Assembly: GCF_044647545.1 (NCBI RefSeq)
Contig: NZ_CP172818.1
DNA from: Escherichia coli
GTDB lineage: Bacteria; Pseudomonadota; Gammaproteobacteria; Enterobacterales; Enterobacteriaceae
Reading direction: 5' to 3' (one strand)
DNA length: 64,000 nucleotides
Positions 2,340 to 57,965 of the stretch are shown here, one piece after another. Position numbers and translations under genes: made by a program. The notes beneath the pieces were generated by a model. The model did no database searches, was not told the origin of the DNA, and worked only from the letters and a program-made list of their open reading frames with translations. Numbering within the stretch: position 1 is the first letter of the stretch; each line of letters begins with the position of its first letter.

Positions 2340-2461
2340 AAAGGCTCCTGAAGTTGAGTTGTCAGAGCAGGATGATTCACAACGCGTTTCATACATGGAA
2401 ATTATGATTGAAACGCCTGTAACCGGAGCTCATAGGGCAAAAACGTTTCAGTCAGTGTAAT

Positions 2462-2495
2462 AAAAAAAGCCTCGTGGGTGAATCCGCACGAGGCC
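2462..2495 (-). terminator. Rho-independent terminator downstream of zwf
   Basis: GC-rich hairpin gcctcgtg...cacgaggc followed by a T-run on the minus strand, just after the zwf stop. Confidence 0.6.
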
Positions 2496-2573
2496 TGAAA
2501 GTGTAAAAATTGTTCTACAATCTGTGCAAGATCATGTTACCGGTAAAATAACCATAAAGGATGAGCGCAGATA

Positions 2574-4049
2574 TTACTCAAACTCATTCCAGGAACGACC
2601 ATCACGGGTGATCATCGCCACTGAGGCAACAGGTCCCCAGGTTCCGGCCTGATACGGTTTCGGCGCATCATTGTCCATCGCCCACGCCTCAGTAATGGAG
2701 TCTACCCATTTCCAGGCTTCTTCCACTTCATCACGACGTACAAACAGTGCCTGAATACCACGCATGGTTTCCAGCAGCAGACGTTCATAGGCATCTGCCA
2801 GATGCGTTTGATTAAAGGTTTCTGAATAGCTCAGATCCAGCTTGGTGATTTGCAGGTTATGTTTGTGGTCAAGGCCAGGAACTTTATTCAGTACCTGGAT
2901 ATCCACGCCTTCATCAGGTTGCAGACGGATAGTCAGTTTATTCTGCGGCAGATCCTGCCACGACTCTTTAAACAGATTCAGTTCAGGTGTTTTGAAATAG
3001 ACCACGACTTCAGAACATTTGGTCGGCAGACGTTTACCAGTACGCAGGTAGAATGGCACACCGGCCCAGCGCCAGTTATCAATGTCGACGCGGATCGCCA
3101 CGAAGGTTTCTGTATTGCTGCTCTTGTTCGCGCCCTCTTCTTCCAGATAGCCCGGCACTTTTTTGCCCTGAGCGAAGCCCGCAGTATATTGCCCGCGTAC
3201 GGTTTTTTCGCGCACATTGGAGCGGTCGATGCGGCGCAGAGACTTCAGTACTTTCACTTTTTCATCGCGGATGCTGTCTGCGCTCAGGTCAGACGGCGGA
3301 GACATCGCAATCATGCAAAGAATTTGCAGCAGGTGGTTCTGGATCATGTCGCGCATCTGACCGGCTTTATCAAAATAGCCCCAGCGCCCTTCGATCCCCA
3401 CTTCTTCTGCCACGGTAATCTCAACATGATCAATGGTGCGATTGTCCCAGTTATTCACAAACAGGGAGTTAGCAAAACGCAGCGCCAACAGGTTCAGCAC
3501 CGTTTCTTTACCAAGATAGTGGTCGATACGGTAAACCTGGCACTCCTCGAAGTATTCGCCAACCTGATCGTTGATTTCCTGCGAGGTCGCCAGCGACGTC
3601 CCCAGCGGTTTCTCCATGACTACGCGTGCCGGTTTAGCATTCAGTTTTGCCTCACCAAGCCCTTTGCAAATTGCGCCAAAAGTGCTGGGCGGCATGGCAA
3701 AATAGTTAATGGTGATACGATTTTTTTGATCCAGCATCGCGCCGAGACGGCTGAATGCAGCAGTGTCATTGACATCGAGATTACAAAAATCCAGACGTGC
3801 ACTCAGGGTGTCCCATAAACCTTCATCAATGGTTTCTTTCATGAAAGTTTCGAGCGCCTCGCGGACAACTTTGGTATAAGCCGCTTTATCCCAGTCAGCA
3901 CGCCCTACGCCGATAATCCGGGTGTCCGGGTTGAGCTGACCGGCTTTTTCCAGTTGATACAGGGAAGGCAGCAATTTACGACGCGCAAGGTCGCCTTTCG
4001 CGCCGAAAATGACCAGGTCACAGGCCTGGGCTGTTTGCGTTACCGCCAT
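2574..4049 (-). CDS. zwf: Glucose-6-phosphate 1-dehydrogenase, 491 aa
   Basis: ORF product [28 protein letters not shown]... with G6PD motifs; expected length. Confidence 0.96.
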
Positions 4050-4386
4050 GTCATTCTCCTTAAGTTAACTAACCCGGTACTTAAGCCAGGGTATACTTGT
4101 AATTTTCTTACGGTGCACTGTACTGCTTTTACGAGCTTGCGAAAACTGTAAACGCTTATCCACCCGTGCGATTACGGTAAAAGCGCGCAAAGTGCGGCAA
4201 AACTGATAAAAAAATCATCGTTTTCCATTGGGTAAAAATCTGACACTGATCATGTTATGAAAAAAAATAACAACTTTTTTATCTGCTTTTGTCATTAACA
4301 CAGCACACAGGCGTAATATCTGACAAAACTGCATTTCGATTTCTTTCAGTGCGGAAATCGTCATTACCCGTGAGTCTCTTTACATC

Positions 4387-5256
4387 ATGAATATGCTGGA
4401 AAAAATCCAGTCTCAGCTGGAACATTTGAGCAAATCAGAGCGCAAAGTTGCCGAGGTCATTCTGGCTTCGCCCGATAACGCGATCCATTCGAGTATTGCT
4501 GCTCTGGCGCTGGAAGCCAATGTTAGCGAACCGACGGTGAATCGTTTCTGTCGCAGCATGGACACGCGCGGTTTTCCTGATTTTAAACTTCATCTGGCAC
4601 AAAGTCTGGCGAATGGCACTCCCTATGTTAATCGCAACGTCAATGAAGATGACAGCGTTGAATCATACACGGGGAAAATATTTGAGTCCGCAATGGCAAC
4701 GCTCGATCATGTCCGTCATTCATTGGATAAATCTGCCATCAACCGCGCCGTCGACTTGCTCACTCAGGCAAAAAAAATCGCCTTTTTCGGATTAGGCTCT
4801 TCTGCCGCTGTTGCCCACGATGCGATGAATAAGTTCTTTCGTTTTAATGTTCCGGTGGTGTACTCCGATGATATTGTGCTGCAACGCATGAGTTGTATGA
4901 ATTGTAGCGACGGAGACGTGGTGGTGCTGATTTCTCACACGGGAAGAACAAAAAATCTGGTCGAGCTGGCGCAGCTGGCACGCGAAAACGACGCCATGGT
5001 GATTGCCCTCACCTCTGCGGGCACCCCGCTCGCCCGGGAAGCAACGCTGGCAATTACCCTCGACGTACCGGAAGATACTGACATTTATATGCCCATGGTT
5101 TCTCGACTTGCGCAGCTGACCGTGATAGATGTGCTGGCGACAGGATTTACTTTGCGACGCGGTGCAAAATTCAGAGATAACTTGAAGCGGGTCAAGGAAG
5201 CGCTGAAGGAATCGCGTTTTGATAAGCAGTTACTTAATTTAAGTGACGATCGCTAA
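4387..5256 (+). CDS. hexR: RpiR/HexR-family transcriptional regulator with SIS domain, 289 aa
   Basis: HTH plus SIS-domain protein transcribed divergently from zwf; matches YebK/HexR. Confidence 0.9.
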
Positions 5257-5383
5257 AAACGACTGTCACTGTCCTAATCTTATACGACATCCGAATGAGA
5301 TTAATTTATCGCCATCGCGGCGTTATTTCATTCGGATTTCATGTTCAAGCAACACCTGGTTGTTTCAGTCAACGGAGTATTAC

Positions 5384-6826
5384 ATGTCCAGAAGGCTTCG
5401 CAGAACAAAAATCGTTACCACGTTAGGCCCAGCAACAGATCGCGATAATAACCTTGAAAAAGTTATCGCGGCGGGTGCAAACGTTGTACGTATGAACTTT
5501 TCTCACGGCTCGCCTGAAGATCACAAAATGCGCGCGGATAAAGTTCGTGAGATTGCCGCAAAACTGGGGCGTCATGTGGCTATTCTGGGTGACCTCCAGG
5601 GGCCCAAAATTCGTGTATCCACCTTTAAAGAAGGCAAAGTTTTCCTCAATATTGGGGATAAATTCCTGCTCGACGCCAACCTGGGTAAAGGTGAAGGCGA
5701 CAAAGAAAAAGTCGGTATCGACTACAAAGGCCTGCCTGCTGACGTTGTGCCTGGTGACATCCTGCTGCTGGACGATGGTCGCGTTCAGTTAAAAGTACTG
5801 GAAGTTCAGGGCATGAAAGTGTTCACCGAAGTGACCGTTGGTGGTCCCCTCTCCAACAATAAAGGTATCAACAAACTTGGCGGCGGTTTGTCGGCTGAAG
5901 CGCTGACCGAAAAAGACAAAGCAGACATTAAGACTGCGGCGTTAATTGGCGTAGATTACCTGGCTGTCTCCTTCCCACGCTGCGGCGAAGATCTGAACTA
6001 TGCCCGTCGGCTGGCACGCGATGCAGGATGTGATGCGAAAATTGTTGCCAAGGTTGAACGTGCGGAAGCCGTATGCAGCCAGGATGCAATGGATGACATC
6101 ATCCTCGCCTCTGACGTGGTAATGGTTGCACGCGGCGACCTTGGTGTGGAAATTGGCGATCCGGAACTGGTCGGCATTCAGAAAGCGTTGATCCGTCGTG
6201 CGCGTCAGCTTAACCGCGCAGTAATCACGGCGACCCAGATGATGGAGTCAATGATTACTAACCCGATGCCGACGCGTGCAGAAGTCATGGACGTAGCAAA
6301 CGCCGTTCTGGATGGTACTGACGCTGTGATGCTGTCTGCAGAAACTGCTGCTGGTCAGTATCCTTCAGAAACTGTTGCAGCCATGGCGCGCGTTTGCCTG
6401 GGTGCGGAAAAAATCCCGAGCATCAACGTTTCTAAACACCGTCTGGACGTGCAGTTCGACAATGTGGAAGAAGCTATTGCCATGTCAGCAATGTACGCGG
6501 CTAACCACCTGAAAGGCGTTACGGCGATCATCACCATGACCGAATCGGGTCGTACCGCGCTGATGACCTCCCGTATCAGCTCTGGTCTGCCAATTTTCGC
6601 CATGTCACGCCATGAACGTACGCTGAACCTGACTGCTCTCTATCGCGGCGTTACGCCGGTGCACTTCGATAGCGCTAATGACGGCGTAGCAGCTGCCAGC
6701 GAAGCGGTTAATCTGCTGCGCGATAAAGGTTACTTGATGTCTGGTGACCTGGTGATTGTCACCCAGGGCGACGTGATGAGTACCGTGGGTTCTACTAATA
6801 CCACGCGTATTTTAACGGTAGAGTAA
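5384..6826 (+). CDS. pykA: Pyruvate kinase II, 480 aa
   Basis: Recognised N-terminus [19 protein letters not shown] begins at the ATG at 5384; the track's ORF 5243..6826 is over-extended upstream. Confidence 0.95.
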
Positions 6827-6830
6827 GTAC

Positions 6831-6869
6831 GTTGCCGGATGCGGCGAAAACGCCTCATCCGGCCTACAG
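6831..6869. repeat. REP (repetitive extragenic palindromic) element
   Basis: gttgccggatgcggcgaaaacgcctcatccggcctacag matches the canonical REP motif GCCGGATGCGGCG...CCTTATCCGGCCTAC. Confidence 0.8.
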
Positions 6870-6931
6870 TTCAATGATAGTTCAACAGATTTCGAATCTT
6901 CTGAAGCAAACTTGAACTTATCACACGGCGG

Positions 6932-6960
6932 AAGCCTCTCCTCGCGAGAGGCTTTTTTTA
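6932..6960. terminator. Hairpin plus T-run between convergent pykA and lpxM, likely bidirectional terminator
   Basis: aagcctctcctcgcgagaggcttttttta; overlaps the lpxM stop codon. Confidence 0.55.
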
Positions 6961-7929
6961 TTTGATGGGATAAAGATCTTTGCGCTTATACGGTTGGATT
7001 TCGCCCGGTTTGCGAGTTTTCAGCAATTTTAATATCCAGGTGTATTGTTCTGGTCGCGGACCAACAAAAATCTCGACTTCTTCATTCATCCGCCGCGCAA
7101 TCGTATGGTCATCCGCCTCTAACAGATCATCCATCGGTGGGCGCACCTGAATCGTCAGACGATGCGTCTTGCCATCATAAATCGGAAACAGCGGTACAAC
7201 GCGCGCACGACACACTTTCATCAAACGACCAATCGCGGGCAACGTCGCTTTATAGGTGGCAAAGAAATCAACAAATTCGCTGTGCTCTGGGCCATGATCC
7301 TGATCGGGTAAATAATATCCCCAGTAGCCCTGACGTACCGACTGGATGAATGGTTTAATACCATCATTTCTCGCATGCAGACGACCGCCAAAGCGACGAC
7401 GCACCGTGTTCCAGACATAATCAAAAACCGGGTTGCCCTGATTATGGAACATCGCTGCCATTTTCTGCCCTTGCGAGGCCATCAGCATGGCCGGGATATC
7501 GACGGCCCAACCGTGTGGCACCAGAAAAATCACTTTCTCGTTATTACGCCGCATCTCTTCGATGATCTCCAGCCCTTGCCAGTCAACGCGCGGCTGAATT
7601 TTCTCCGGCCCGCGTATTGCCAACTCAGCCATCATTGCCATCGCTTGCGGCGCGGTGGCAAACATCTCATCAACAATCGCTTCGCGTTCAGCTTCACTAC
7701 GTTCTGGAAAGCAGAGCGACAAATTGATTAACGCACGACGGCGTGAGCTTTTTCCCAGTCGTCCGGCAAAACGTCCCAGCCGTGCCAGAATGGGATCACG
7801 GAACTTTGGCGGCGTTAAAGCGATACCCGCCATCGCCGCTACGCCCAGCCATGCTCCCCAGTAGCGCGGGTGGCGAAAGGATTTATCAAACTCAGGAATG
7901 TATTCGCTATTATTTTTTTTCGTTTCCAT
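6958..7929 (-). CDS. lpxM: Lipid A myristoyltransferase (Kdo2-lauroyl-lipid IVA acyltransferase), 323 aa
   Basis: Full-length [32 protein letters not shown]...; LpxM/MsbB family. Confidence 0.93.
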
Positions 7930-8001
7930 GCTTTTCCAGTTTCGGATAAGGCAAAAATCAATCTGGTGATAGTGTAGCGGCGCAACTTGCCCCGCACCAA
8001 A

Positions 8002-8033
8002 TAAAAAAAGCCGGTACTGACTGCGTACCGGCT
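8002..8033 (-). terminator. Rho-independent terminator downstream of mepM
   Basis: Hairpin gccggtac...gtaccggc followed on the minus strand by a T-run. Confidence 0.55.
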
Positions 8034-8048
8034 GCGAATGGATGTTAA

Positions 8049-9371
8049 TTAATCAAACCGTAGCTGCGGCACAATCTCTTTGGCCTGCGCCAGGAATTCG
8101 CGACGATCGGAACCGGTCAGCCCTTCGGTACGCGGCAGTTTTGCCGTCAGCGGGTTTACGGCCTGCTGGTTTATCCATACTTCATAGTGCAGATGCGGCC
8201 CGGTTGAACGTCCGGTATTACCGGAAAGCGCGATGCGGTCGCCACGTTTCACCTTCTGTCCCGGTTTCACCAGAATCTTGCGCAGGTGCATATAACGCGT
8301 GGTGTAGCTGCGACCATGACGAATAGCCACATAATAACCTGCTGCGCCACTGCGTTTGGCAACCACCACTTCACCGTCACCCACTGAAAGCACCGGCGTA
8401 CCCTGTGGCATGGCGAAATCAACACCTCTGTGTGGCGCAACACGACCAGTCACCGGATTAGTACGACGCGGGTTAAAGTTAGACGAGATACGGAACTGTT
8501 TCGCCGTCGGGAATCGCAAGAATCCTTTCGCCAGACCAGTACCGTTACGATCGTAGAATTTGCCATCTTCAGCGCGGATTGCGTAATAATCTTTACCTTC
8601 TGAACGCAAACGTACGCCCAGCAGCTGGCTTTGCTCACGTTTACCATCAAGCATTTCTCGAGACATTAACACCGCAAATTCATCGCCTTTTTTCAGTTTG
8701 CGGAAATCCATTTGCCACTGCATGGCTTTAATCACTGCGCTCACTTCGGCGCTGGTTAAACCGGCGTTTCTGGCGCTGGCAACAAAGCTCCCTCCGACGG
8801 TACCTTTCAGCAGATTGTTAACCCACTCTCCTTGCTGCATTTCGCTGGTCATTTTAAAACCGTTAGCGGCAGTACGGTCATAGGTTCGGGTTTCACGACG
8901 AGACACTTCCCAGGTGAGGCGCTGCAGTTCGCCGTCCGCGGTTAATGTCCAGGAGAGTTGTTGACCGATTTTCAGGTTACGCAATTCTTTGTCGGCAGCA
9001 GCCAGTTGGGTGATATCACCCATATCAATACCATACTGATTGAGAATGCTACTTAGCGTATCGCCAGTGGAAACAACATATTCATGCACGCCCGCTTCAC
9101 CGGCGATTTTGTCATCCAGTTCATCCTGGGGAATGGCTTCATCTTCTTGTGCAGCTTGATCAATCGGCTCACTGGCTTCAGGTAAGAGCGAACGAATTTC
9201 GTTCTGTTCCAGCTCAATGGTTTTGACAATTGGCGTGGCGTCGCGGTGATAAACATAGGGCCGCCAGACAGCGACGGCCAGAGTAAGAACGGTGAGCGAC
9301 CCCAACATAACGCGGTGTGGTCGCGGTAAATTATTAAACGCCAGGGCGACAGAGCGGGCTATCTGTTGCAC
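8049..9371 (-). CDS. mepM: Murein DD-endopeptidase, LysM plus M23 peptidase domains, 440 aa
   Basis: 440-aa ORF with the M23 HxH motif (GPHLHYEV) and a LysM-like segment; matches YebA/MepM. Confidence 0.93.
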
Positions 9372-9386
9372 GTAATCACTTCCTCA

Positions 9387-10319
9387 TTAATCTCCTTTCA
9401 GGCAGCTCGCATACTGGTTGGCTAATTGATTCAGGAATTCTGAATAGCTTGTTTTACCCAGTTTGATATTCGTCCCCAGGGGATCCAACGTTCCCATACG
9501 AACGGATGTCCCTCGTGCGACGCTCTCAACGACCGCTGGCCTGAACTGTGGCTCAGCAAAAACGCAGGTTGCTTTTTGCTCAACCAACTGTGTTCTTATT
9601 TCATGTAAACGCTGCGCGCCAGGTTGAATCTCAGGGTTAACGGTAAAATGACCAAGCGGTGTCAGTCCGAACTGTTTTTCGAAGTAGCCGTAAGCATCGT
9701 GAAAAACGAAATAACCTTTCCCCTTGAGCGGCGCGAGCTCGTTACCAACCTGCGTTTCGGTTGAGGCTAATTGTGCCTCAAAATCCTTCAGGTTGGCGTC
9801 AAGTTTGGCTCGACTTTGCGGCATAAGTTCCACTAATTTTCCATGGATTGCAACCGCTGTAGCCCGCGCTATCTCTGGGGAAAGCCAAAGATGCATGTTG
9901 AAATCGCCGTGATGGTGATCTTCGTCACTTTTTTCCGCGTGATCGTGATCATCATCATCGTCGTGAATACTTTTCATCAGCAGCGGTTTCACATCTTCTA
10001 GCTGCGCAATCGTTACCTGTTTCGCTTCTGGTAATTTACTTACCGGTTTTTGCATGAAAGCTTCCATCTCCGGGCCAACCCAAACGACTAAGTCCGCGTT
10101 CTGTAAGCGTTTTACATCCGATGGACGCAGTGAATAATCATGTTCTGAAGCGCCGTCAGGCAGTAAAACCTGCGTTTCTGTTACCCCATCAGCAATGGCA
10201 GAAGCGATGAACCCAACAGGTTTAAGCGAAGCGACAACGGCGGCATCTGCGGCCTGTGTTGCACCGCCCCAGAGAGCGGCGGATAATGCTGCGAAAAGAA
10301 GCGTTTTTTTATGTAACAT
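9387..10319 (-). CDS. znuA: Periplasmic zinc-binding protein of the ZnuABC transporter, 310 aa
   Basis: Signal-peptide start [23 protein letters not shown] at the ATG at 10317-10319 (track ORF over-extended); His/Asp-rich loop [21 protein letters not shown]. Confidence 0.93.
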
Positions 10320-10350
10320 AATGCGACCAATCATCGTAATGAATATGAGA

Positions 10351-10371
10351 AGTGTGATATTATAACATTTC
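10351..10371. promoter_or_regulatory. Zur operator (zinc-responsive) in the divergent znuA / znuCB promoter region
   Basis: Near-palindromic agtgtgatattataacatttc between the divergent znuA and znuC starts. Confidence 0.6.
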
Positions 10372-10397
10372 ATGACTACTGCAAGACTAAAATTAAC

Positions 10398-11153
10398 ATG
10401 ACAAGTCTGGTTTCCCTGGAAAATGTCTCGGTTTCTTTTGGCCAACGCCGCGTCCTCTCTGATGTGTCGCTGGAACTTAAACCTGGAAAAATTTTGACTT
10501 TACTTGGGCCAAATGGCGCAGGTAAGTCGACACTGGTACGGGTAGTGCTCGGGCTGGTAACACCCGATGAAGGGGTTATCAAGCGCAACGGAAAACTGCG
10601 CATCGGCTATGTACCGCAGAAGCTGTATCTCGACACCACGTTGCCACTGACCGTAAACCGTTTTTTACGCTTACGACCTGGCACACATAAAGAAGATATT
10701 TTGCCTGCACTGAAACGTGTCCAGGCCGGACACCTGATTAACGCACCGATGCAAAAGCTCTCGGGTGGCGAAACGCAGCGTGTACTGTTAGCGCGAGCAT
10801 TGTTAAATCGACCGCAATTATTAGTGCTGGATGAACCCACTCAGGGCGTGGATGTGAATGGTCAGGTGGCGTTATATGACCTTATTGGCCAACTGCGTCG
10901 TGAACTGGATTGTGGCGTTTTAATGGTCTCTCACGATCTGCATCTGGTAATGGCAAAAACCGATGAAGTGCTTTGCCTGAATCACCACATTTGTTGTTCC
11001 GGCACACCGGAAGTTGTTTCCCTGCATCCGGAGTTTATTTCTATGTTTGGTCCTCGTGGTGCTGAACAACTGGGTATCTATCGCCATCATCATAATCATC
11101 GTCACGATTTACAGGGACGAATTGTTTTGCGTCGGGGAAATGATCGCTCATGA
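10398..11153 (+). CDS. znuC: Zinc ABC transporter ATP-binding protein, 251 aa
   Basis: Walker [13 protein letters not shown] signature LSGGETQRV, His-rich C-terminus. Confidence 0.95.
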
Positions 11154-11935
11154 TTGAATTATTATTTCCTGGTTGGTTAGCCGGGATCATGCTCGCCTGT
11201 GCCGCGGGTCCGCTGGGTTCGTTTGTCGTCTGGCGTCGTATGTCTTATTTCGGTGATACGCTGGCTCATGCCTCATTACTTGGCGTCGCGTTTGGTTTGT
11301 TGCTGGACGTGAATCCATTCTATGCGGTGATTGCCGTTACGCTGCTGCTGGCGGGCGGTCTGGTATGGCTGGAGAAGCGTCCACAACTGGCGATCGACAC
11401 GTTATTAGGGATTATGGCGCACAGTGCCCTGTCGCTGGGCCTGGTGGTCGTTAGTCTGATGTCTAATATTCGTGTTGATTTGATGGCTTACCTGTTCGGT
11501 GATTTACTGGCAGTGACGCCAGAAGATCTCATCTCTATTGCGATTGGCGTGGTCATCGTGGTGGCTATTTTGTTCTGGCAATGGCGCAATTTGCTGTCGA
11601 TGACGATTAGCCCGGATCTGGCGTTTGTTGATGGTGTGAAATTACAGCGCGTGAAATTGTTGTTGATGCTGGTGACGGCATTGACGATTGGTGTAGCGAT
11701 GAAATTTGTCGGCGCGTTGATTATTACTTCGTTGCTGATTATTCCTGCTGCTACAGCGCGTCGCTTTGCCCGCACGCCGGAACAGATGGCCGGTGTCGCT
11801 GTTTTGGTGGGAATGGTGGCAGTAACTGGCGGTTTAACCTTTTCCGCATTTTACGATACGCCGGCGGGTCCGTCGGTAGTGCTATGTGCGGCACTGTTAT
11901 TTATTCTCAGTATGATGAAAAAGCAGGCCAGCTAA
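11150..11935 (+). CDS. znuB: Zinc ABC transporter permease, 261 aa
   Basis: Polytopic membrane ORF whose start overlaps the znuC stop by 4 nt. Confidence 0.95.
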
Positions 11936-11954
11936 TCTGTCGCTGAACACATTT

Positions 11955-13095
<1,141 letters not shown>

Positions 13096-13100
13096 TTACC

Positions 13101-13712
13101 TCATAACGCGGCGCGTAGGGCTTCGCGAATTAATGTTTCACTGCTGGCGTCAGGGCGAGCGATTTTGCTCACCATGCGGCTTGCTTCTTGTGGTTTATAG
13201 CCCAGCGCCACCAGCGCGGCAACAGCTTCCTGTTCAGCATCGTCGGTCGCCGGGCTGGCAGGTGACGTGAGTACCAGGTCGGCAGCTGGCGTAAAGAGAT
13301 CGCCATGCAAACCTTTAAATCGGTCTTTCATTTCAACAATCAAGCGTTCGGCGGTTTTTTTGCCAATACCCGGCAGTTTCACCAGCGCCCCCACTTCTTC
13401 ACGCTCAACGGCATTAACGAACTGCTGCGCTGACATTCCAGAGAGGATCGCCAGCGCCAACTTCGGGCCGACGCCGTTGGTTTTGATCAACTCTTTGAAC
13501 AACGTGCGCTCTTGTTTATTGTTAAAACCGTACAGCAGTTGCGCGTCTTCACGCACCACAAAGTGGGTGAAAACGATCGCTTCCTGACCCGCTTCAGGGA
13601 GTTCATAAAAACAGGTCATCGGCATATGCACTTCATAGCCTACGCCGCCCACTTCAATTAACACCAGCGGGGGTTGTTTTTCAATGATGATGCCTCTGAG
13701 TCTGCCTATCAC
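13101..13712 (-). CDS. ruvA: Holliday junction DNA-binding protein, 203 aa
   Basis: [28 protein letters not shown]...; immediately upstream of ruvB. Confidence 0.96.
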
Positions 13713-13763
13713 ATGACGCTCCTGCGTAATGAATCAAAGATAATGCTGTATGATAAAAAAATG

Positions 13764-13779
13764 CTGGATAGATATCCAG
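13764..13779. promoter_or_regulatory. LexA (SOS) box upstream of ruvAB
   Basis: CTGGATAGATATCCAG fits the CTG-N10-CAG palindrome, 52 nt upstream of the ruvA start. Confidence 0.7.
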
Positions 13780-13986
13780 CGAAGGATGAAGAAAACTTGC
13801 GAGGCGTCCCGATGTTCTGAAAAATGACGCAGTATAATTTTTTCTACAGGTTATATTGGAAGCAAATATTTAAATATTACATATTCAGTGAAGAAATGCG
13901 TAATAAAAATATACATTGCGCCTCCTGAAAAAATAAATTTTTTATGCTATTACGTATATTCATATCTATTTCAATGGAATGACAAC

Positions 13987-14589
13987 ATGAATATTAATTA
14001 CCCTGCTGAATATGAAATTGGTGATATCGTCTTTACATGTATAGGTACTGCCTTATTTGGCCAAATATCAGCTGCATCAAATTGCTGGAGTAATCACGTC
14101 GGTATCATTATCGGTCATAACGGTGAAGACTTCCTGGTTGCAGAAAGCCGGGTTCCCCTTTCAACTATCACCACGCTATCTCGTTTTATTAAACGTTCTT
14201 CTAATCAACGCTATGCTATAAAGCGATTAGACGCCGGGCTTACAGAACAACAAAAACAACGAATTGTTGAACAGGTTCCCTCCCGGCTACGCAAACTTTA
14301 CCACACCGGTTTTAAATACGAATCTTCGCGCCAGTTCTGTTCAAAATTTGTTTTTGATATTTATAAAGAGGCGCTATGTATTCCGGTGGGTGAAATAGAG
14401 ACGTTTGAAGAACTGTTAAACAGCAATCCGAATGCAAAACTCACTTTCTGGAAATTCTGGTTCCTGGGTTCTATTCCGTGGGAGCGTAAAACCGTCACGC
14501 CAGCCAGTTTGTGGCATCATCCGGGTTTAGTGTTGATTCATGCGGAGGGAGTGGAAACGCCTCAGCCGGAACTGACCGAGGCGGTATAA
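13987..14589 (+). CDS. yebB: Uncharacterised protein, 200 aa
   Basis: ORF between ruvA and ruvC; start taken at [13 protein letters not shown] (ATG 13987), giving the 200-aa length I recall for YebB. Confidence 0.8.
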
Positions 14590-14590
14590 C

Positions 14591-15112
14591 TTAACGCAGT
14601 CGCCCTCTCGCCAGGTTCAGCCGCGATTCGCTCATCTGCATCGCATTCTGACTGACGTGACAATGAGTAATCGCGATAGCTAACGCATCGGCGGCATCCG
14701 CCTGTGGATTAGCGGGCAGTTTCAGCAAGGTGCGGACCATATGCTGCACCTGGCTTTTTTCGGCACTACCAATACCTACCACCGTTTGCTTTACCTGACG
14801 TGCCGCGTATTCAAATACCGGCAATTCCTGATTCACCGCCGCCACAATCGCCACGCCGCGCGCCTGCCCCAGTTTCAGGGCCGAGTCGGCATTTTTGGCC
14901 ATAAAGACTTGTTCGATTGCGAAATAATCAGGCTGGAACTGGGTGATGATTTCCGTCACGCCCGCATAGATGAGCTTCAGACGAGACGGTAAATCATCCA
15001 CTTTGGTGCGTATGCATCCGCTACCCAGGTAGGACAGTTGCCTGCCTACCTGGCGGATGACGCCATAGCCGGTCACGCGCGAACCCGGGTCAATGCCGAG
15101 AATAATAGCCAT
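14591..15112 (-). CDS. ruvC: Holliday junction resolvase, 173 aa
   Basis: [19 protein letters not shown]... RNase H-like resolvase; start at the second Met of the track ORF. Confidence 0.95.
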
Positions 15113-15146
15113 CACGCGTCTCCGTTTTGCTGTTTAGCAGGCCTCA

Positions 15147-15887
15147 TCAGAGAGTCGCTGCAACCTCATCAGAGATTTCACCGTTATGGTAAACTTCCTG
15201 CACGTCGTCGCAATCTTCCAGCATATCGATCAGACGCATCAGTTTCGGTGCGGTTTCTGCATCCATATCAGCTTTGGTGGACGGGATCATGGAAACTTCC
15301 GCGCTGTCTGCTTTCAGACCTGCCGCTTCCAGAGCGTCGCGTACTTTGCCCATTTCTTCCCATGCAGTGTAGACATCAATCGCGCCGTCATCATAGGTCA
15401 CAACGTCTTCAGCACCGGCTTCCAGGGCTGCTTCCATGATGGTGTCTTCATCGCCTTTCTCGAAGGAGATCACGCCTTTTTTGCTGAACAGATAAGCTAC
15501 GGAACCATCAGTACCGAGGTTACCGCCACATTTGCTGAATGCATGACGCACTTCAGCAACGGTACGGTTGCGGTTGTCAGACAGACATTCAATCATGATT
15601 GCCGTGCCGCCAGGACCGTAACCTTCGTAGATGATGGTTTCCATGTTTGCATCATCATCACCACCCACACCTCGTGCAATTGCGCGGTTCAGAGTGTCAC
15701 GGGTCATGTTGTTAGACAGTGCTTTATCAATTGCTGCACGCAAACGCGGGTTAGCGTCCGGATCACCACCGCCCAGCTTAGCCGCGGTTACCAGCTCACG
15801 AATGATTTTAGTGAAGATTTTACCGCGCTTAGCATCCTGCGCAGCTTTACGATGTCTGGTGTTGGCCCATTTACTATGACCTGCCAT
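15147..15887 (-). CDS. yebC: YebC/PmpR-family transcriptional regulator, 246 aa
   Basis: [27 protein letters not shown]... conserved YebC family. Confidence 0.93.
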
Positions 15888-15915
15888 AAAAATATCTCCA
15901 GATAGCCCTGCCTGT

Positions 15916-16329
15916 TCAGGCAGCGTTAATTACAAACTGTTCAATCGCCTGCCGGTTGCTCCAGGACTTAGTGAGCGCCGCCGCAGCATGCGCATCAAGC
16001 CACTTGTAGGCCAGATGTTCAGTGAAGACGACCTGGCGTTCGTGCGGAAGCGCAAGACAGAACCATGATTCCGTATTACGCGTCACGCCCGGCGCATAGC
16101 GATGACGTAAATGTGAAAAAATTTCAAATTCTACCGTGCGCTGACAGTCAATTAAGGTCAGTTGTTCAGCGACAACATCAATGGTGACCTCTTCCTTTAC
16201 TTCGCGCATGGCAGCTTGCGGCGCGGTTTCACCCTCTTCCACGCTGCCGGTTACCGACTGCCAGAAATCGGGATCGTCACGCCGCTGCAACATCAGCACC
16301 CGTTTCGTATCTTGTGCGTAGATGACCAC
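15916..16329 (-). CDS. nudB: Nudix hydrolase (dihydroneopterin triphosphate diphosphatase); start codon uncertain
   Basis: Nudix box [21 protein letters not shown]; the track starts at GTG 16327-16329; the aspS TGA is in-frame 30 nt upstream with no ATG between. Confidence 0.8.
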
Positions 16330-16359
16330 TAAGATCGAAACGGGACGCTTATAGCCATA

Positions 16360-18132
16360 TCAGTTATTCTCAGCCTTCTTCACAACCTGAATGCTCAGCT
16401 CAGCCAGTGCAGTCGGGTTAGCAAAGCTCGGTGCTTCAGTCATCAGACACGCCGCCGCCGTGGTTTTCGGGAAGGCGATAACGTCACGGATATTGTCGGT
16501 GCCGGTCAGCAGCATGGTCAAACGGTCAAGACCAAATGCCAGACCTGCGTGCGGCGGAGTACCGTATTTCAGGGCGTCGAGCAGGAAGCCGAATTTCTCG
16601 CGCTGTTCCTCTTCGTTGATACCCAGAATACCAAACACTGTCTGCTGCATATCACCATTATGGATACGCACAGAACCACCGCCCACTTCGTAACCATTGA
16701 TGACCATATCGTAAGCGTTCGCCACCGCATTTTCCGGTGCAGCTTTCAGTTCTGCTGCCGTCATGTCTTTTGGTGAGGTGAACGGATGGTGCATTGCCGT
16801 CAGGCCGCCTTCACCGTCGTCTTCAAACATCGGGAAGTCGATAACCCACAGCGGTGACCATTTGCTTTCGTCGGTCAGACCAAGGTCTTTACCCACTTTC
16901 AGGCGCAGTGCACCCATCGCGTCGGCAACAATTTTCTTGTTGTCGGCACCGAAGAAAATCGTATCGCCATCTTGCGCGGCAGTACGATCCAGGATGGCTT
17001 CGATGATTTCTGCATTAAGGAACTTCGCTACCGGGCTGTTGATACCTTCCAGACCTTTCGCGCGTTCGTTAACTTTGATGTACGCCAGACCTTTCGCGCC
17101 GTAGATTTTAACGAAGTTACCGTATTCGTCGATCTGTTTACGGGTCAGCGATGCGCCGCCCGGAACGCGCAGAGCCGCTACGCGACCTTTCGGATCGTTC
17201 GCCGGACCTGCAAATACTGCAAATTCAACGGATTTCAGCAGATCGGCAACGTCGGTCAGTTCCATCGGGTTACGCAGATCCGGTTTATCAGAACCATAAC
17301 GGCGTTCTGCTTCTGCAAAGGTCATTACCGGGAAATCGCCCAGATCCACGCCCTTCACTTCCAGCCACAGATGACGCACCAGCGCTTCCATCACTTCACG
17401 CACTTGCGGGGCGGTCATGAAAGAAGTTTCCACATCGATCTGAGTAAATTCAGGCTGACGGTCAGCACGCAGGTCTTCGTCACGGAAGCATTTAACGATC
17501 TGATAGTAGCGGTCAAAGCCGGACATCATCAGCAGCTGTTTGAACAACTGCGGGGATTGCGGCAGTGCGTAGAATTTACCTTTGTGCACACGAGAAGGCA
17601 CCAGGTAGTCACGCGCGCCTTCCGGCGTGGCTTTGGTCAGCATCGGAGTTTCGATGTCGAGAAAGCCGTGGTCATCCATAAAACGGCGCACCAGGCTGGT
17701 GATTTTAGCGCGGGTTTTCAGGCGCTGAGCCATTTCCGGGCGACGCAGGTCGAGGTAGCGGTATTTCAGACGCGCTTCTTCGGTGTTGACGTGGTTAGAG
17801 TCAAGCGGCAGAACATCTGCGCGGTTGATGATAGTCAGCGAGGACGCCAGCACTTCGATTTCGCCGGTCGCCATATCGCGGTTAATATTTTTTTCGTCAC
17901 GCGCACGTACGGTGCCCGTGACCTGAATGCAGAACTCATTACGCAGTTCAGAGGCCAGCTTTAACGCGTCCGCACGATCCGGATCGAAAAATACCTGCAC
18001 GATACCTTCGCGGTCGCGCATATCGATGAAGATCAGGCTACCAAGATCACGACGACGGTTGACCCAACCACACAGAGTCACCTGCTGCCCCACGTGGGAC
18101 AAACGGAGCTGTCCACAATATTCTGTACGCAT
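16360..18132 (-). CDS. aspS: Aspartate--tRNA ligase, 590 aa
   Basis: [24 protein letters not shown]... class II aaRS; C-terminus ...VVKKAENN. Confidence 0.97.
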
Positions 18133-22023: not shown

Positions 22024-22055
22024 AGTAGCGCCCGTTTCCGGGCGCTTTTCACGTC

Positions 22056-26757: not shown

Positions 26758-27324
26758 TTACGCCGACTGCTCGCTGGCCACGATCTCTTCAATGGACCAC
26801 GGATGAAACTTAATGGTTGTTTTGCCATCGGTGACCGCCAGCGTCGGATTCGGTAATCGTTCATGCTCACCTTTTGGCGAACTGGTTTTAACTGAGATCC
26901 CCGGCAGGCTGAGTCCTTCATCAGAAAGCAATGCCAGCGCACGGGCATTCAACGTTTCTGGATCACCCGGCAGAACGATTTCAATATGTTCCCAACCTTC
27001 GTGCGGGTAACGTTTTTCCCCGGGCCACGGTAGCTCCACAATGGAAAACTGCCAGTGAGCAACCTGTACCGGTTCATGCAATTTAAACAGACAAATCGGC
27101 CTGCCATTGATCATATTATCTGACAGGAGTTCGCCGCACTGTTCAAACCCGCGACGCCAGCGTTCAGCGGTGGCGTTTTGATGGCAACGCAAAGAAATGT
27201 GATCGGCAGCCAGCGGGGTGGTATCCAGCCCCAGACGACGGGAAAGTTCGTCTAATGCATGGATAAATCGCGGTAAATCTGTTGCAATATCCTGCAACTC
27301 GTCGATAGATTGCCAGTTCGCCAT
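26758..27324 (-). CDS. yecM: YecM-family protein (glyoxalase-like fold), 188 aa
   Basis: MANWQSIDELQDIATDLPRF...; start at the third Met of the track ORF. Confidence 0.85.
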   Translation of the reverse strand: MANWQSIDELQDIATDLPRFIHALDELSRRLGLDTTPLAADHISLRCHQNATAERWRRGFEQCGELLSDNMINGRPICLFKLHEPVQVAHWQFSIVELPWPGEKRYPHEGWEHIEIVLPGDPETLNARALALLSDEGLSLPGISVKTSSPKGEHERLPNPTLAVTDGKTTIKFHPWSIEEIVASEQSA

Positions 27325-27539
27325 AATCACTCTTCATCTTTCAGTAAAAGCGTTAATTTACCCTGTTGCCCTGCGCCAACCAACCGCTGATTTCACGCCG
27401 CTTCTGATGCAATAGTGAAAACGGCAATACTCCACGCGCACGTTGCTGACGAAAACAGCCATTTGCAGTATACTCCCGCCCTAATTTCTTTAACTGGTGC
27501 GGGCAAATTTTGCTCGCTTCATCAATGTAAGGTATTCCG

Positions 27540-29273
27540 GTGAATATTCAGGCTCTTCTCTCAGAAAAAGTCCGTCAGGCCATGATTGCGGCAGGCGCGC
27601 CTGCGGATTGCGAACCGCAGGTTCGTCAGTCAGCAAAAGTTCAGTTCGGCGACTATCAGGCTAACGGCATGATGGCAGTTGCTAAAAAACTGGGTATGGC
27701 ACCGCGACAATTAGCAGAGCAGGTGCTGACTCATCTGGATCTTAACGGTATCGCCAGCAAAGTTGAGATCGCCGGTCCAGGCTTTATCAACATTTTCCTT
27801 GATCCGGCATTCCTGGCTGATCATGTTCAGCAGGCGCTGGCGTCCGATCGTCTCGGTGTTGCTACGCCAGAAAAACAGACCATTGTGGTTGACTACTCTG
27901 CGCCAAACGTGGCGAAAGAGATGCATGTCGGTCACCTGCGCTCTACCATTATTGGTGACGCAGCAGTTCGTACTCTGGAGTTCCTCGGTCACAAAGTGAT
28001 TCGCGCAAACCACGTCGGCGACTGGGGCACTCAGTTCGGTATGCTGATTGCGTGGCTGGAAAAGCAGCAGCAGGAAAACGCCGGTGAAATGGAGCTGGCT
28101 GACCTTGAAGGTTTCTACCGCGATGCGAAAAAGCATTACGACGAAGATGAAGAGTTTGCCGAGCGTGCACGTAACTACGTGGTAAAACTGCAAAGCGGTG
28201 ACGAATATTTCCGCGAGATGTGGCGCAAACTGGTCGACATCACCATGACGCAGAACCAGATCACCTACGATCGTCTCAACGTGACGCTGACCCGTGATGA
28301 CGTGATGGGTGAAAGCCTCTACAACCCAATGCTGCCGGGTATCGTGGCGGACCTGAAAGCCAAAGGTCTGGCAGTAGAAAGTGAAGGCGCGACCGTCGTA
28401 TTCCTTGATGAGTTCAAAAACAAGGAAGGCGAACCGATGGGTGTGATCATTCAGAAGAAAGATGGCGGCTATCTCTACACCACCACTGATATCGCCTGTG
28501 CGAAATATCGTTATGAAACGCTGCATGCCGATCGCGTGCTGTATTACATCGACTCCCGTCAGCATCAACACCTGATGCAGGCATGGGCGATCGTCCGTAA
28601 AGCAGGCTATGTACCGGAATCCGTACCGCTGGAACACCACATGTTCGGCATGATGCTGGGTAAAGACGGCAAACCGTTCAAAACCCGCGCGGGTGGTACA
28701 GTGAAACTGGCCGATCTGCTGGATGAAGCCCTGGAACGTGCACGCCGTCTGGTGGCAGAAAAGAACCCGGATATGCCAGCCGACGAGCTGGAAAAACTGG
28801 CTAACGCGGTTGGTATTGGTGCGGTGAAATATGCGGATCTCTCCAAAAACCGCACCACGGACTACATCTTCGACTGGGACAACATGCTGGCGTTTGAGGG
28901 TAATACCGCGCCATACATGCAGTATGCTTACACGCGTGTATTATCCGTGTTCCGTAAAGCAGAAATTGACGAAGAGCAACTGGCTGCAGCTCCGGTAATC
29001 ATCCGTGAAGATCGTGAAGCACAACTAGCAGCTCGCCTGCTGCAGTTTGAAGAAACCCTCACTGTGGTTGCCCGTGAAGGCACGCCGCATGTGATGTGTG
29101 CTTACCTGTACGATCTGGCCGGTCTGTTCTCTGGCTTCTACGAGCACTGCCCGATCCTCAGCGCAGAAAACGAAGAAGTGCGTAACAGCCGTCTGAAACT
29201 GGCACAACTGACGGCGAAGACGCTGAAGCTGGGTCTGGATACGCTGGGTATTGAGACAGTAGAGCGTATGTAA
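27540..29273 (+). CDS. argS: Arginine--tRNA ligase, 577 aa
   Basis: Class I aaRS with the HVGH motif ([10 protein letters not shown]). Confidence 0.97.
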
Positions 29274-29326
29274 TCGGTTATACCAACAGCCGATGTCATG
29301 GAGACCGCTTTTTATTTTTTTATCAT

Positions 29327-29719
29327 TCAACGATAATTCACAATCACTTCATTCCGTTGTACCTTTAGCGGCGGAATTAACCGCCCACCGCCAGGCACTT
29401 CCCAGATAAATCGCAACGGTTCTATCGCCGGTATACCGGAAAAGGCCACGGTGGTTCCACTCTGCCCTTCTAATTCGACACAACGAGATTGCGAACACAA
29501 GCGAACCCGCAGTCCTGCAGGTGTCGGGCCGATAAGCTGATAACGCCACGCCACCAGCGTCATCAATCCTGCAGCAGGTTGTCGAGTAGAAAGAGGCGCT
29601 GACGACATCGATTCACCACGGTGATTCAGCGTAACGCCCACACTACTCGCCTGCCACATCCCCTCCCCCGCGGCTTGCACCAGCAGCGGAAACAATAATA
29701 TTGCTAATAAGGTTCTCAT
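29327..29719 (-). CDS. flhE: Flagellar protein FlhE, 130 aa
   Basis: MRTLLAILLFPLLVQAAGEG... signal peptide; last gene of flhBAE; its ATG overlaps the flhA stop. Confidence 0.9.
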   Translation of the reverse strand: MRTLLAILLFPLLVQAAGEGMWQASSVGVTLNHRGESMSSAPLSTRQPAAGLMTLVAWRYQLIGPTPAGLRVRLCSQSRCVELEGQSGTTVAFSGIPAIEPLRFIWEVPGGGRLIPPLKVQRNEVIVNYR

Positions 29720-31797
29720 CATTTACCGCCAATTGTCGCCGTCATGCGGATATGTCGGTTATCAGACAGTTCCAGATTCGACAGCACCACTAACTGCGGC
29801 AAGCTGCGGCGCAGGAAGCGAGACAATAATGGTCGCAGCGCGTGGTTCACCAACAATACCGGCGGCGCACCCAACATCTCCTGACGGGATAGCGCTTCCT
29901 GAGTTTGCGCCAGTAAACGATCCGCCAGCCCTGGCTCCAGTCCGCCCCCGCCCTGCAACGCCTGTAGCAACAAACGTTCCAGCGGTGTATCGAGGCCAAT
30001 AACATGAACTTCATCTTTGCCAGGAAACCACTGCTGGGTAATCGCCCGTCCCAACGCCACGCGCACGACGGCGGTTAATTCATGTGGATCGCTCTGGATG
30101 GGCGCATGTTCCGCCAGCGTTTCGAGAATGGTGCGCATATCGCGAATCGGCACTTTTTCATCGAGCAGATTTTGCAGCACTTTATGCAGTGTGGTGAGCG
30201 TGACGACGCCAGGAACGAGATCTTCCGTCAGCTTTGGCATCTCCTGGGCGACGCGATCCAACAGCTGTTGCGCCTCCTGACGACCAAACAGCTCTGCGGC
30301 ATGCTGGCTAATGAGGTGGTTAAGATGCGTTGCCACCACCGTGCTGGCCTCAACCACGGTGTACCCCTGAATCTGCGCCTGTTCTTTAAGCGCACTTTCA
30401 ATCCAGATAGCATTCAGGCCAAATGCCGGATCGACGGTCGCCTCACCAGGTAACGTCCCGGCAGCGGTACCAGGGTTAATCGCCAACCAACGCCCCGGAT
30501 AAGCATCACCACTGCCTATCTCCACGCCTTTCATCAAAATGCGATAGCGGGCAGGTTGCAGATCCATATTGTCGCGAATGTGCACCACCGGTGGCAGAAA
30601 CCCCATCTCCTGGGCAAATTTCTTGCGAATACTGCGTATACGGCCCAGCAACTCACCATCCTGCTGGAAATCGACCATCGGGATCAGGCGATAACCCACT
30701 TCCATTCCCAGAGAATCTTCCAGTTGTACATCGTTCCACGTCGCTTCGACAACGGTATTATTCTCTGCCATTTTTACCGGTTTTGGTTCGGCAGGCGCTT
30801 TTTGTTCACGTCCACGGATCCACCAGGCCAGCCCAAGCAATCCGGCAGTGAACAGCAAAAATACCAGGTTCGGCATTCCGGGCACCAGGCCGAGTAAACC
30901 GAGCACGGCGGCGCTTAACAACATAACGCTTGGGTTACTGAAAAGCTGATTCACCATCTGCTCGCCAACATCCTGATCGGTGCTGACACGCGTAACGATG
31001 ACCCCCGCGGCGGTAGAAATCACCAACGCCGGAATTTGTGCCACCAGACCGTCGCCAATGGTCAATAGCGTATAACTTTCCGCCGCGTGTCCCATGCTCA
31101 TGCCATGTTGCAGCACGCCGACCAGCAACCCGCCGACAACGTTAATGACCATGATGAGGATCCCGGCGATGGCATCGCCGCGAACAAACTTACTTGCCCC
31201 ATCCATTGAGCCGTAAAAATCGGCTTCCTGAGTCACTTCGGAGCGGCGTTTTTTCGCCTCATCTTCACCAATCAATCCAGCGTTAAGGTCGGCGTCAATC
31301 GCCATCTGCTTACCCGGCATGCCATCGAGAACAAAGCGCGCACCCACTTCTGCGATACGCCCGGCACCTTTGGTGATAACCATAAAGTTGATGATCACGA
31401 GAATGACGAACACCACGATACCGATAGCGAAATTGCCACCAACGAGGAAGTGACCGAACGCTTCGACCACCTTCCCAGCCGCCGCCGCGCCGGTATGCCC
31501 TTCCATCAAAATGATACGGGTTGAAGCCACATTAAGTGCCAGACGCAACAGCGTGGTAAACAACAGAATGGTCGGAAACGCAGCAAACTCAAGCGTGCGC
31601 TGGGTAAACATCGCCACCAGCAACACCATGATCGACAAGGCAATATTGAAGGTAAACAACAGGTCGAGTATGAATGCGGGCAGTGGCAGCACCATCATCG
31701 ACAAGATCAACAGGATCAAAATCGGTCCGGCAAGGATCTGCCATTGTGTCGATTTCAGGTTTGCAGGCAGGCGCAGCATCGCGGCCAGATTACTCAT
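29719..31797 (-). CDS. flhA: Flagellar type III export apparatus protein FlhA, 692 aa
   Basis: MSNLAAMLRLPANLKSTQWQILAGP...; start at the internal ATG 31797. Confidence 0.95.
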   Translation of the reverse strand: MSNLAAMLRLPANLKSTQWQILAGPILILLILSMMVLPLPAFILDLLFTFNIALSIMVLLVAMFTQRTLEFAAFPTILLFTTLLRLALNVASTRIILMEGHTGAAAAGKVVEAFGHFLVGGNFAIGIVVFVILVIINFMVITKGAGRIAEVGARFVLDGMPGKQMAIDADLNAGLIGEDEAKKRRSEVTQEADFYGSMDGASKFVRGDAIAGILIMVINVVGGLLVGVLQHGMSMGHAAESYTLLTIGDGLVAQIPALVISTAAGVIVTRVSTDQDVGEQMVNQLFSNPSVMLLSAAVLGLLGLVPGMPNLVFLLFTAGLLGLAWWIRGREQKAPAEPKPVKMAENNTVVEATWNDVQLEDSLGMEVGYRLIPMVDFQQDGELLGRIRSIRKKFAQEMGFLPPVVHIRDNMDLQPARYRILMKGVEIGSGDAYPGRWLAINPGTAAGTLPGEATVDPAFGLNAIWIESALKEQAQIQGYTVVEASTVVATHLNHLISQHAAELFGRQEAQQLLDRVAQEMPKLTEDLVPGVVTLTTLHKVLQNLLDEKVPIRDMRTILETLAEHAPIQSDPHELTAVVRVALGRAITQQWFPGKDEVHVIGLDTPLERLLLQALQGGGGLEPGLADRLLAQTQEALSRQEMLGAPPVLLVNHALRPLLSRFLRRSLPQLVVLSNLELSDNRHIRMTATIGGK

Positions 31798-32938
31798 GGG
31801 TCGGTTTCTCGTTAATAAAATCCAGGGCTTCCGGCACCGGAAGATGAGTAGGTTGTACAGGGCGCTGTCCACCAGCCAGACGCCAGCGTTTCAGTTGCCA
31901 GACCCAGGCCAGCACTTCCGCCACTGCGGCGTACAGTTGACCCGGGATTTGTTGACCGATCTCCGCATGTCGATACAGCGCTCGCGCCAGCGGCGGCGCT
32001 TCAAGCGTCGGGACGTTATTTTCAGCGCCAATTTCACGAATGCGCAGCGCGACCAGCCCTGCACCTTTAGCGACCACTTTCGGTGCGCTCATTTTGTTTT
32101 CGTCATACTGCAACGCTACCGAATAGTGGGTCGGGTTATTGACAATGACATCCGCTTTCGGCACATCGGCCATCATCCGACGCCGTGCAGCCGCTCGCTG
32201 CATCTGACGTATCCGCCCTTTAACATGGGGGTCGCCTTCGCTTTGTTTGAACTCATCACGAATATCCTGCCGCGACATACGCAGCTTTTTCAGGTGGCTG
32301 AAGATTTGGAAAAAGACGTCAAATCCCACCATTGGAATGACACCAAGCACCACCAGCAGTGCGCATAGCCCTACCAGATCCATCGCATTACCCATGGCGG
32401 TAATCGGAGACTCGGCCATTAAGCGCATCATCTGCGGCCAGTGATGCCAGAGAAAAAACCCCGTCACGCTGCCAACCAGGATGGTTTTCAAAATTGCCTT
32501 AAGCAACTCCGCGCCAGTCTGAGCCGAGAACATCCGTTTAATGCCCGGTAGCGGGTTGAGTTTGGAAAACTTCGGCTGCAAGGATTTGCCGCTAAATACC
32601 AGCCCTCCCAGCATGACCGGAGAAATGAGCGCCACCAGCACCACGCCGCTAATCAGTGGCAGCAGCGCCAGCATGGCTTCTCTGATCAGCAGAATAATCT
32701 GCCCGAGGATCAGATTCGGGTCATTGATAATACTGTGATCAAAATGCAGCCCAGCGGAGAGCATGCCCGACAATCGACGGGCCAGCGACACACCGCCAAA
32801 CCAGATAACACACACGCCCACTAACAAAATCAGCAGCGAGGTCAGTTCACGGGAACGCGGGATTTGCCCCTCTTCCCGCGCTTTTTCTAGTCGGTGAGGT
32901 GTGGGGGCTTCTGTTTTGTCGTCGCTCTCGTCAGACAC
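31790..32938 (-). CDS. flhB: Flagellar export apparatus switch protein FlhB, 382 aa
   Basis: Contains the NPTH autocleavage motif (VNNPTHYSVAL). Confidence 0.95.
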   Translation of the reverse strand: MSDESDDKTEAPTPHRLEKAREEGQIPRSRELTSLLILLVGVCVIWFGGVSLARRLSGMLSAGLHFDHSIINDPNLILGQIILLIREAMLALLPLISGVVLVALISPVMLGGLVFSGKSLQPKFSKLNPLPGIKRMFSAQTGAELLKAILKTILVGSVTGFFLWHHWPQMMRLMAESPITAMGNAMDLVGLCALLVVLGVIPMVGFDVFFQIFSHLKKLRMSRQDIRDEFKQSEGDPHVKGRIRQMQRAAARRRMMADVPKADVIVNNPTHYSVALQYDENKMSAPKVVAKGAGLVALRIREIGAENNVPTLEAPPLARALYRHAEIGQQIPGQLYAAVAEVLAWVWQLKRWRLAGGQRPVQPTHLPVPEALDFINEKPTHE

Positions 32939-33105
32939 GTCGCCAATCCTGGAAAGAGTATTAAGCGTAAATGATGCCAGATCGCAAAGCGTTCAATGGT
33001 TTGAGTAAGGGGCAAAACAGGCGGGATTTAGGGCGTTTGCTGCCAAAAATAGATAGTGATGCGTTTAGTCGGATGCGGCGTTTTCGCTTATCACGCCTCA
33101 AAAAA

Positions 33106-33188
<83 letters not shown>

Positions 33189-33204
33189 GTTAAGGCAATA
33201 CAAA

Positions 33205-45286: not shown

Positions 45287-45961
45287 CAAAACACTCAATT
45301 ACTTAAATTTAACACAAATCATCAACAAAAATACAACTTCCATTCAATCTCTTTATTAATACACCTTCCACCATCCACATATAAAACACATTCGAATTCT
45401 TACACCACCCTCAACTAAAGGACACAAAAACAAACCAACACCTCAAAAACACCACATACACTAAACAAGCAGCATCACCCATAAATGTATAAGTCATACT
45501 TTTGTTTTGGGTGTATTTCAATCTGTTAAAAAGTTTTTCGCAACGCTAGCAAGCAAAAATGAAACAGGAATAATCGAAATGGGATGTTGCGCACAGTTAA
45601 AATAACTCACCGTAAATAATCATCTGCTATAAATAATCACTTTCATGCAATACCCGATAAGCTATTTTTAAACAGACACTTACCGCACAACAAACTAATT
45701 AAATACAAAGAAAGGCAACAATCAACCTAATGTTAATAAAATGTTTTGCATATATTAACCACTTGTTTAATATGGGAAATCAGTACATTATTTTCTTATA
45801 AATACAGTTGAAATCATATGATCACCGAGAGTGATTGATTAATTATCTTTACTAATGACCAGACTAATATTTACCTGTTTTACTGAGTTGGGATTGCGTC
45901 GTTTCTCCATTAGGAGTAAAGCTTTAATGTCACCTGCAGTTCACAGAATAAGGAACAGGTT

Positions 45962-57943: not shown

Positions 57944-57965
57944 AAAAAAACCACCCGAAGGTGGT
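57944..57965 (-). terminator. Rho-independent terminator downstream of the tRNA operon
   Basis: Hairpin ccacccgaaggtgg followed by T7 on the minus strand. Confidence 0.6.

Follow-up and report, generated by a model that had tools for sequence, protein, structure and literature searches.

In the bidirectional terminators of convergent E. coli genes, the stem-loop of the nascent RNA positions head-on collisions between polymerases (Wang, Watters, Ju and Liu, bioRxiv 10.1101/2022.10.23.513370). Between the convergent genes argS and flhE, two alternative junctions are annotated in E. coli. The long allele, found in K-12 and O157:H7, runs from an argS terminator through yecV, yecT and a yecT terminator to flhE; in K-12 MG1655 this interval measures 784 bp and contains yecV (14 aa, minus strand) and yecT (b1877, 162 aa, plus strand); the initial annotation had likewise placed yecT between argS and flhE in K-12. 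K-12 YecT belongs to the LprI family (PF07007, E 1e-17), while the G+C content of the interval is 39%, compared with 53% in argS and flhE. BglJ-RcsB activates yecT, whose function is unknown, and H-NS/StpA influence it (PMC3950696). The short allele lacks yecT and is annotated in CFT073 (phylogroup B2), O25:H4 and ST648 (phylogroup F) strains.

Beyond Escherichia, Salmonella and Citrobacter resemble the locus described here in that flhBAE ends with flhE and is followed by an interval of variable content. However, their flhE–argS interval is occupied by a paralogue of PBP2 (MrdA), and it contains neither yecT nor a bare terminator. In Citrobacter sp. Cu233 (L021, 3406-5274) the PBP2 (MrdA) paralogue is present; in S. 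enterica subsp. diarizonae (L012, 3654-6338), a glycosidase-like gene is present besides the paralogue. Judged from these gene contents, the flhE–argS interval is a variable-content spot across the Enterobacteriaceae.

Gene content of the argS–flhE junction

The window, meaning the whole stretch of 64,000 nucleotides of E. coli DNA that was analysed, is ST648-type, phylogroup F-like sequence; its identity to ST648-type genomes was 100.0% for positions 1-17000 and 99.9% for 17000-41000. Within it, argS on the plus strand and flhE on the minus strand converge, with yecM and cutC to the left of argS, and flhA and flhB upstream of flhE on the minus strand (Table 1). The stop codons are TAA for argS (29271-29273) and TGA for flhE (29327-29329; tca on the plus strand), and they enclose a gene-free spacer of 53 nt, just as had been noted from the sequence at the outset. 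Both proteins, ArgS and FlhE, are 100% identical to their ST648-type counterparts. A spacer of 53 nt between convergent genes is not unusual in itself.

Table 1. Positions of the genes and spacer elements at the argS–flhE junction of the window.
Feature	Position	Strand	Basis and remarks
argS (arginine--tRNA ligase)	27540..29273	+	577 aa; TIGR00456, E 1e-218, 727 bits
New 7-bp stem AUCGGUU/AGCCGAU	29273..29294	+	RNA fold; captures the old 5' arm, away from the U-tract
Convergent spacer, short (yecT-less) allele in a version seen only in the window	29274..29326	.	Aligned with both the short and the long allele
Intact 5' arm AGCCGATGTC of the conserved hairpin	29288..29297	+	Identical to the canonical short allele of E. 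coli F and B2
Loop remnant ATGG and degraded 3' arm	29298..29308	+	AGACCGC (29302-29308) replaces CAGACATCGGC
T-rich tract T5-A-T7 (canonical T6), U-tract of the argS terminator	29309..29321	+	Sequence
flhE, last gene of flhBAE	29327..29719 (ORF to 29722; annotated start 29719)	-	NF047946, E 3e-63, 211 bits

The suggestion that this strain lacks yecT was borne out: no homologue of YecT or YecV (by tblastn), and no DNA of the K-12 cassette (by blastn), was found anywhere in the 64-kb window, and there is no PF07007 (LprI) ORF between its argS and flhE. The window shares with the long allele its flanking genes and a homologous T-rich right end beside the flhE stop, but the 39%-GC cassette with yecV and yecT is missing altogether. 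The gene content is that of the short allele, with neither yecT nor yecV and with stops 53 nt apart, against about 52 nt elsewhere.

This absence is widely shared. yecT was present in 3,638 of 5,426 complete E. coli genomes, while approximately 1,783 carried the short junction, with a 52-nt gap and no yecT, where a short junction was counted if at least 80% of a 101-nt query around the window spacer was matched. Two further genomes gave partial junction matches (1,783-1,785), and the yecT and short forms sum to 5,423 of the 5,426 genomes. Both alleles also occur among other Escherichia species: the short form, with the same stem, in E. albertii and in the SCPM-O-B-8794 lineage, and yecT in E. 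whittamii and Escherichia sp. E1V33, while more distant genera hold different genes at this position. By this distribution the locus, a spot of variable content, has long been dimorphic for the presence or absence of yecT, and both alleles are common. Since about a third of E. coli genomes are without yecT, its absence here is ordinary; it is also already known, being annotated in more than 1,700 RefSeq genomes. The initial annotation had reasoned that an equally short spacer in reference genomes would mean that yecT maps elsewhere or that the expected K-12 gene order is wrong. Such genomes are indeed many, but the locus is dimorphic and yecT does not map elsewhere. The earlier reading was supported, although it is of little significance, and the biological weight of the finding is small: the yecT-less state is common and annotated, and yecT is a low-GC accessory gene.

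A conserved hairpin in the canonical short allele

The canonical short spacer (52-55 nt) contains GCCGATGTC, a loop and GACATCGGC, followed by TTTTTT; the canonical arm reads GACATCGGCTTTTTT. This hairpin with its T6 tract was present in ST648, CFSAN061771, 2014C-3338, BH100N, CFT073, SCPM-O-B-8794 and E. albertii, and the core of the 5' arm is common to the last two lineages also. The stem is GC-rich, 9-10 bp long and closed by a 6-nt loop, which agrees with the form of an intrinsic terminator (a loop of 3-8 nt on a GC-rich stem of roughly 5-12 bp), and its energy where it abuts the T-run is -17.6 kcal/mol. Folded in context, the canonical allele reached -24.1 kcal/mol (z = -3.8), and a fold as good was obtained in 0 of 200 shuffles.

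Alignment of six short alleles, all of which contain the hairpin, showed that variation is concentrated outside it. Only 1 of 24 columns in the stem and T-run was variable, the sole change being from C-G to U-G with the pair kept, compared with 14 of 31 columns in the rest of the spacer (Fisher p = 0.0007). The loop is freely swapped among alleles (ATGGCA, ATTGCA, GCAGTTACG and GCGGTTACG). A constrained stem and T-run around a free loop is the mark of an intrinsic terminator that functions for argS, and the canonical hairpin with T6 is accordingly regarded as the putative terminator of argS transcription. The hairpin of the K-12 argS terminator (AAGCCTGATCAGG.../...CCGATCAGGCTT) differs from it in sequence.

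The canonical short allele resembles the bidirectional terminators in having a single stem-loop, 10 nt from one stop codon and approximately 20 nt from the other. It differs from them on the flhE strand, where what comes after the hairpin, UGUUGCCGUAU, makes a poor U-tract; the canonical 5' flank CGGCAACA becomes UGUUGCCG when read on this strand and provides nothing better. The combination that defines a bidirectional terminator, an A-tract 5' and a U-tract 3' of one stem-loop, was not found. In the window the comparison departs further, its stem-loop being lost. A single element fills the 52-nt gap of the short allele: its GC-rich hairpin and T6 would end argS transcripts intrinsically and, read from the flhE strand, the same hairpin would stop or pause flhBAE transcription. 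Termination of flhBAE at this hairpin is plausible, though probably weaker than that of argS, and it may rely on polymerase collisions positioned by the stem-loop, by analogy with the convergent genes described previously (bioRxiv 10.1101/2022.10.23.513370).

The private spacer of the window and its origin

The window has the same gene order and orientation as the short junction of CFT073, O25:H4, ST648 and E. albertii, together with the 5' hairpin arm and a T-run beside the flhE stop; the spacers measure 53 and 52 nt respectively, and their first 30 nt are alike save for two small deletions. Nevertheless, the spacer of the window (TCGGTTATACCAACAGCCGATGTCATGGAGACCGCTTTTTATTTTTTTATCAT) differs from the canonical version: the 3' arm GACATCGGC has become GACCGC and the T6 tract T5-A-T7, with one C and GG absent upstream and an extra C in the region of the flhE stop. 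An affine-gap alignment to the canonical 52-nt spacer resolved these differences as seven indel events (-C, -GG, -C, -AT, -G, +TTTTTAT and +C) and 0 substitutions. The inserted C changes the flhE stop from TAA to TGA and leaves the protein unaltered. Compared with the nearest relatives (L072, L076 and L004) across 26789-33038, there were 14 differing columns, all of them within 29277-29328, so that approximately 6.2 kb around the spacer contains no other difference from ST648-type relatives.

The consequence of these changes is that the conserved hairpin can no longer form. The 3' arm is not complementary to the 5' arm because C, AT and G were lost, and the loss of one C created a new 7-bp stem, AUCGGUU/AGCCGAU. 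The 5' arm of the canonical element is there and the 3' arm is gone; with respect to the general form of an intrinsic terminator, the window spacer has the U-rich tract and lacks the GC-rich stem. A terminator scan (hairpin plus T-run) returned no site in the window spacer, and the best structure abutting the T-run was an interrupted stem of 35 nt at -8.1 kcal/mol, against -17.6 for the canonical hairpin. The regional minimum free energy was -16.5 kcal/mol (z = -2.0), in a fold that uses the new 7-bp stem and pairing with the last codons of argS, while on the flhE strand the fold was on par with shuffled sequence (z = -0.32). Two statements of the initial annotation, that the spacer has a T-rich segment and that it has no strong hairpin, both held. 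Because a strong conserved hairpin was present in all other short-allele genomes that were compared, its absence here is what is truly anomalous and is the sole surprising element of the junction, though probably an artefact.

The window version was not encountered elsewhere. When the 101 nt around its spacer was compared with 5,426 complete E. coli genomes, the best match reached only 86.7%, and exact-pattern scans of metagenome contigs with the 5' half and the 3' half of the private spacer, run without a positive control, gave 0 hits; the genomes in these searches were complete RefSeq assemblies of E. coli, and the metagenomes were those of JGI. The stretch that distinguishes the private version is CAGCCGATGTCATGGAGACCGC. 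A gene-conversion patch from an ectopic donor was considered and rejected, given that the private 22-mer occurred once only in the window, even with 3 mismatches allowed, and that the 101-nt query matched only the orthologous place in E. coli genomes.

Judged from the pattern of differences, the scrambled spacer is most likely a local error of sequencing, assembly or consensus, rather than biology. Natural spacer alleles differ from one another by substitutions, whereas the window version differs by indels only, and no single known mutational mechanism gives a pattern of many tiny indels amid 6 kb of perfect identity. The extra TTTTTAT and the A+T7 form resemble the sequence at the right-hand side of the long (yecT) allele, and the spacer as a whole reads as a blurred hybrid of the short and long alleles. 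Furthermore, it is one of three garbled stretches in the window, the others being at 33039-33192 and 45307-45479, each set in near-perfect sequence. Since all three are unique, deletion-biased and hybrid-looking, and lie at structurally variable sites, a common technical cause is favoured over three independent events; the pattern points to a shared cause such as a consensus taken over heterogeneous or poorly supported sequence. Against an artefact, both proteins are intact despite all of the changes, as selection on a real allele would give, and the new stem with the longer U-tract could be taken to compensate in part. Elsewhere in the window terminators are whole, for example the hairpin at 22030-22050, and there is therefore no general error specific to hairpins.

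The alternative is that the spacer is a real private allele of an ST648-like strain, in which one complex mutational event destroyed the conserved terminator. This seems unlikely, although several observations accord with it: the changes are confined between two stop codons without altering either protein, the alternative structure at -16.5 kcal/mol ends at the U5AU7 tract, and the window is otherwise highly accurate, as its 100.0% identity over 17 kb attests. However, a real allele would have acquired seven separate indels of 1-7 nt and 0 substitutions within 53 nt, against none in the 6.2 kb around them, and simple instability of a palindrome fails to account for this because two of the deletions fall outside the hairpin. 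The element affected is clearly constrained in all other lineages, including E. albertii; there was no second occurrence of the allele in 5,426 genomes or in metagenomes; and the same window contains two more unique segments of non-biological appearance.

argS is a highly expressed housekeeping gene and flhBAE a flagellar export operon. That a natural ST648-like isolate should be without the terminator that is conserved between them from E. albertii to E. coli is rather doubtful. Were it so, argS transcription would be expected to read antisense into flhE-flhA-flhB, while flhBAE transcription would enter the antisense strand of argS and go on until Rho or a collision ended it. Any termination that was left would be due to the weaker composite structure and its long U-tract, to Rho, or to polymerase collisions. 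Expression of the flagellar export genes could drop, and a motility phenotype would be possible. Such an isolate would have modest use as a natural knock-out of the conserved terminator, and as a test case for convergent genes without a shared stem-loop.

It is very improbable that the strain underwent its own recent deletion of yecT from a K-12-like long allele, leaving the 53-nt spacer as a scar. The 3' end of the spacer (A+T7, and TTCA before the flhE stop) does match the right flank of the long allele of an O9:H10 strain at 15 of 16 positions. However, the first 30 nt, including the 5' arm AGCCGATGTC, are those of the short allele (28 matches and two gaps), and the long allele does not have them; the argS and flhE flanks are identical to short-allele ST648 genomes and not to K-12; and the nearest relatives are without exception genomes with the canonical short allele. 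The alignments already largely refute a deletion of this kind, for which a long allele with AGCCGATGTCATGG in its flanks would be needed. Scarcely credible is that the spacer hides a regulatory RNA or a small gene in place of the terminator, since the 38-codon ATG-initiated ORF that starts in the spacer (29293-29409, plus strand) runs antisense through flhE without a Shine-Dalgarno sequence and in a frame made by the private indels, the one sigma-70-like promoter match (9/12, 29299-29326) is at chance level (1 found, 0.8 expected), and comparison of the spacer with Rfam gave no family even at E <= 1.

Other irregular stretches in the window

The second garbled stretch lies in the flhB-cheZ intergenic region. 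In order, 33039-33192 contains a degraded copy of the REP-like sequence that genomes without the island described below have at this place, then a poly(A) run, and lastly the right junction in its ST648-type form; the run itself is 51 nt long (33100-33150) with one C near its start. Its context had no match among the 5,426 complete E. coli genomes, the best covering 88%. The poly(A) stretch looks non-biological, the alternative being a poly(A)-tailed retro-copy. In ST648 relatives this position (approximately 33050-33150 of the window) is occupied by a 2.3-kb flhB–cheZ island (L004, 16177-18406) that is missing from the window; the products of its genes are a dGTPase of defence type (PADLOC PDLC02374, E 3e-70) and a hypothetical protein of 250 aa with no family match. 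Island-less genomes found through FlhB belong to other lineages (97.5% identity), and these carry the canonical argS–flhE spacer.

The third stretch, 45307-45479, is an insert of 173 nt upstream of flhD, composed of 78 A, 55 C, 35 T and 5 G. In alignment it corresponds to the last 251 nt of IS1, as a subsequence riddled with deletions, and ends exactly at the insertion point of IS1H in MG1655 (...GCAGCATCACC|CATAAATG), the left copy of the target site being missing. The insert was found in none of the 5,426 complete E. coli genomes. IS insertions in the region where it is situated, the regulatory region of flhDC, alter motility.

K-12 is structurally unlike ST648 at exactly the three garbled sites, and contamination with K-12 reads is a possibility, though no more than that, as the one cause of all three; the retained share of foreign sequence is inconsistent with it, at about 1% of the yecT cassette and 22% of IS1. 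In practical terms, garbled stretches that are short and unique occur in the window at three or more structurally polymorphic sites, and its intergenic features need comparison with sister genomes before they are interpreted.

Outside the garbled sites, among the few differences from ST648-type genomes in 17000-41000 is a 2-bp (AT) indel at 22026, between cmoB and torZ; it directly follows a stop codon and precedes a terminator hairpin that is intact (GCGCCCG-TTTC-CGGGCGC-TTTT). Lastly, when 57200-64000 was compared with its best match, SCU-301, substitutions were dense from 57207 onwards, with 46 mismatches and hardly any indels. Unlike the indel-only changes of the spacer, this pattern has the ordinary look of a recombination boundary.
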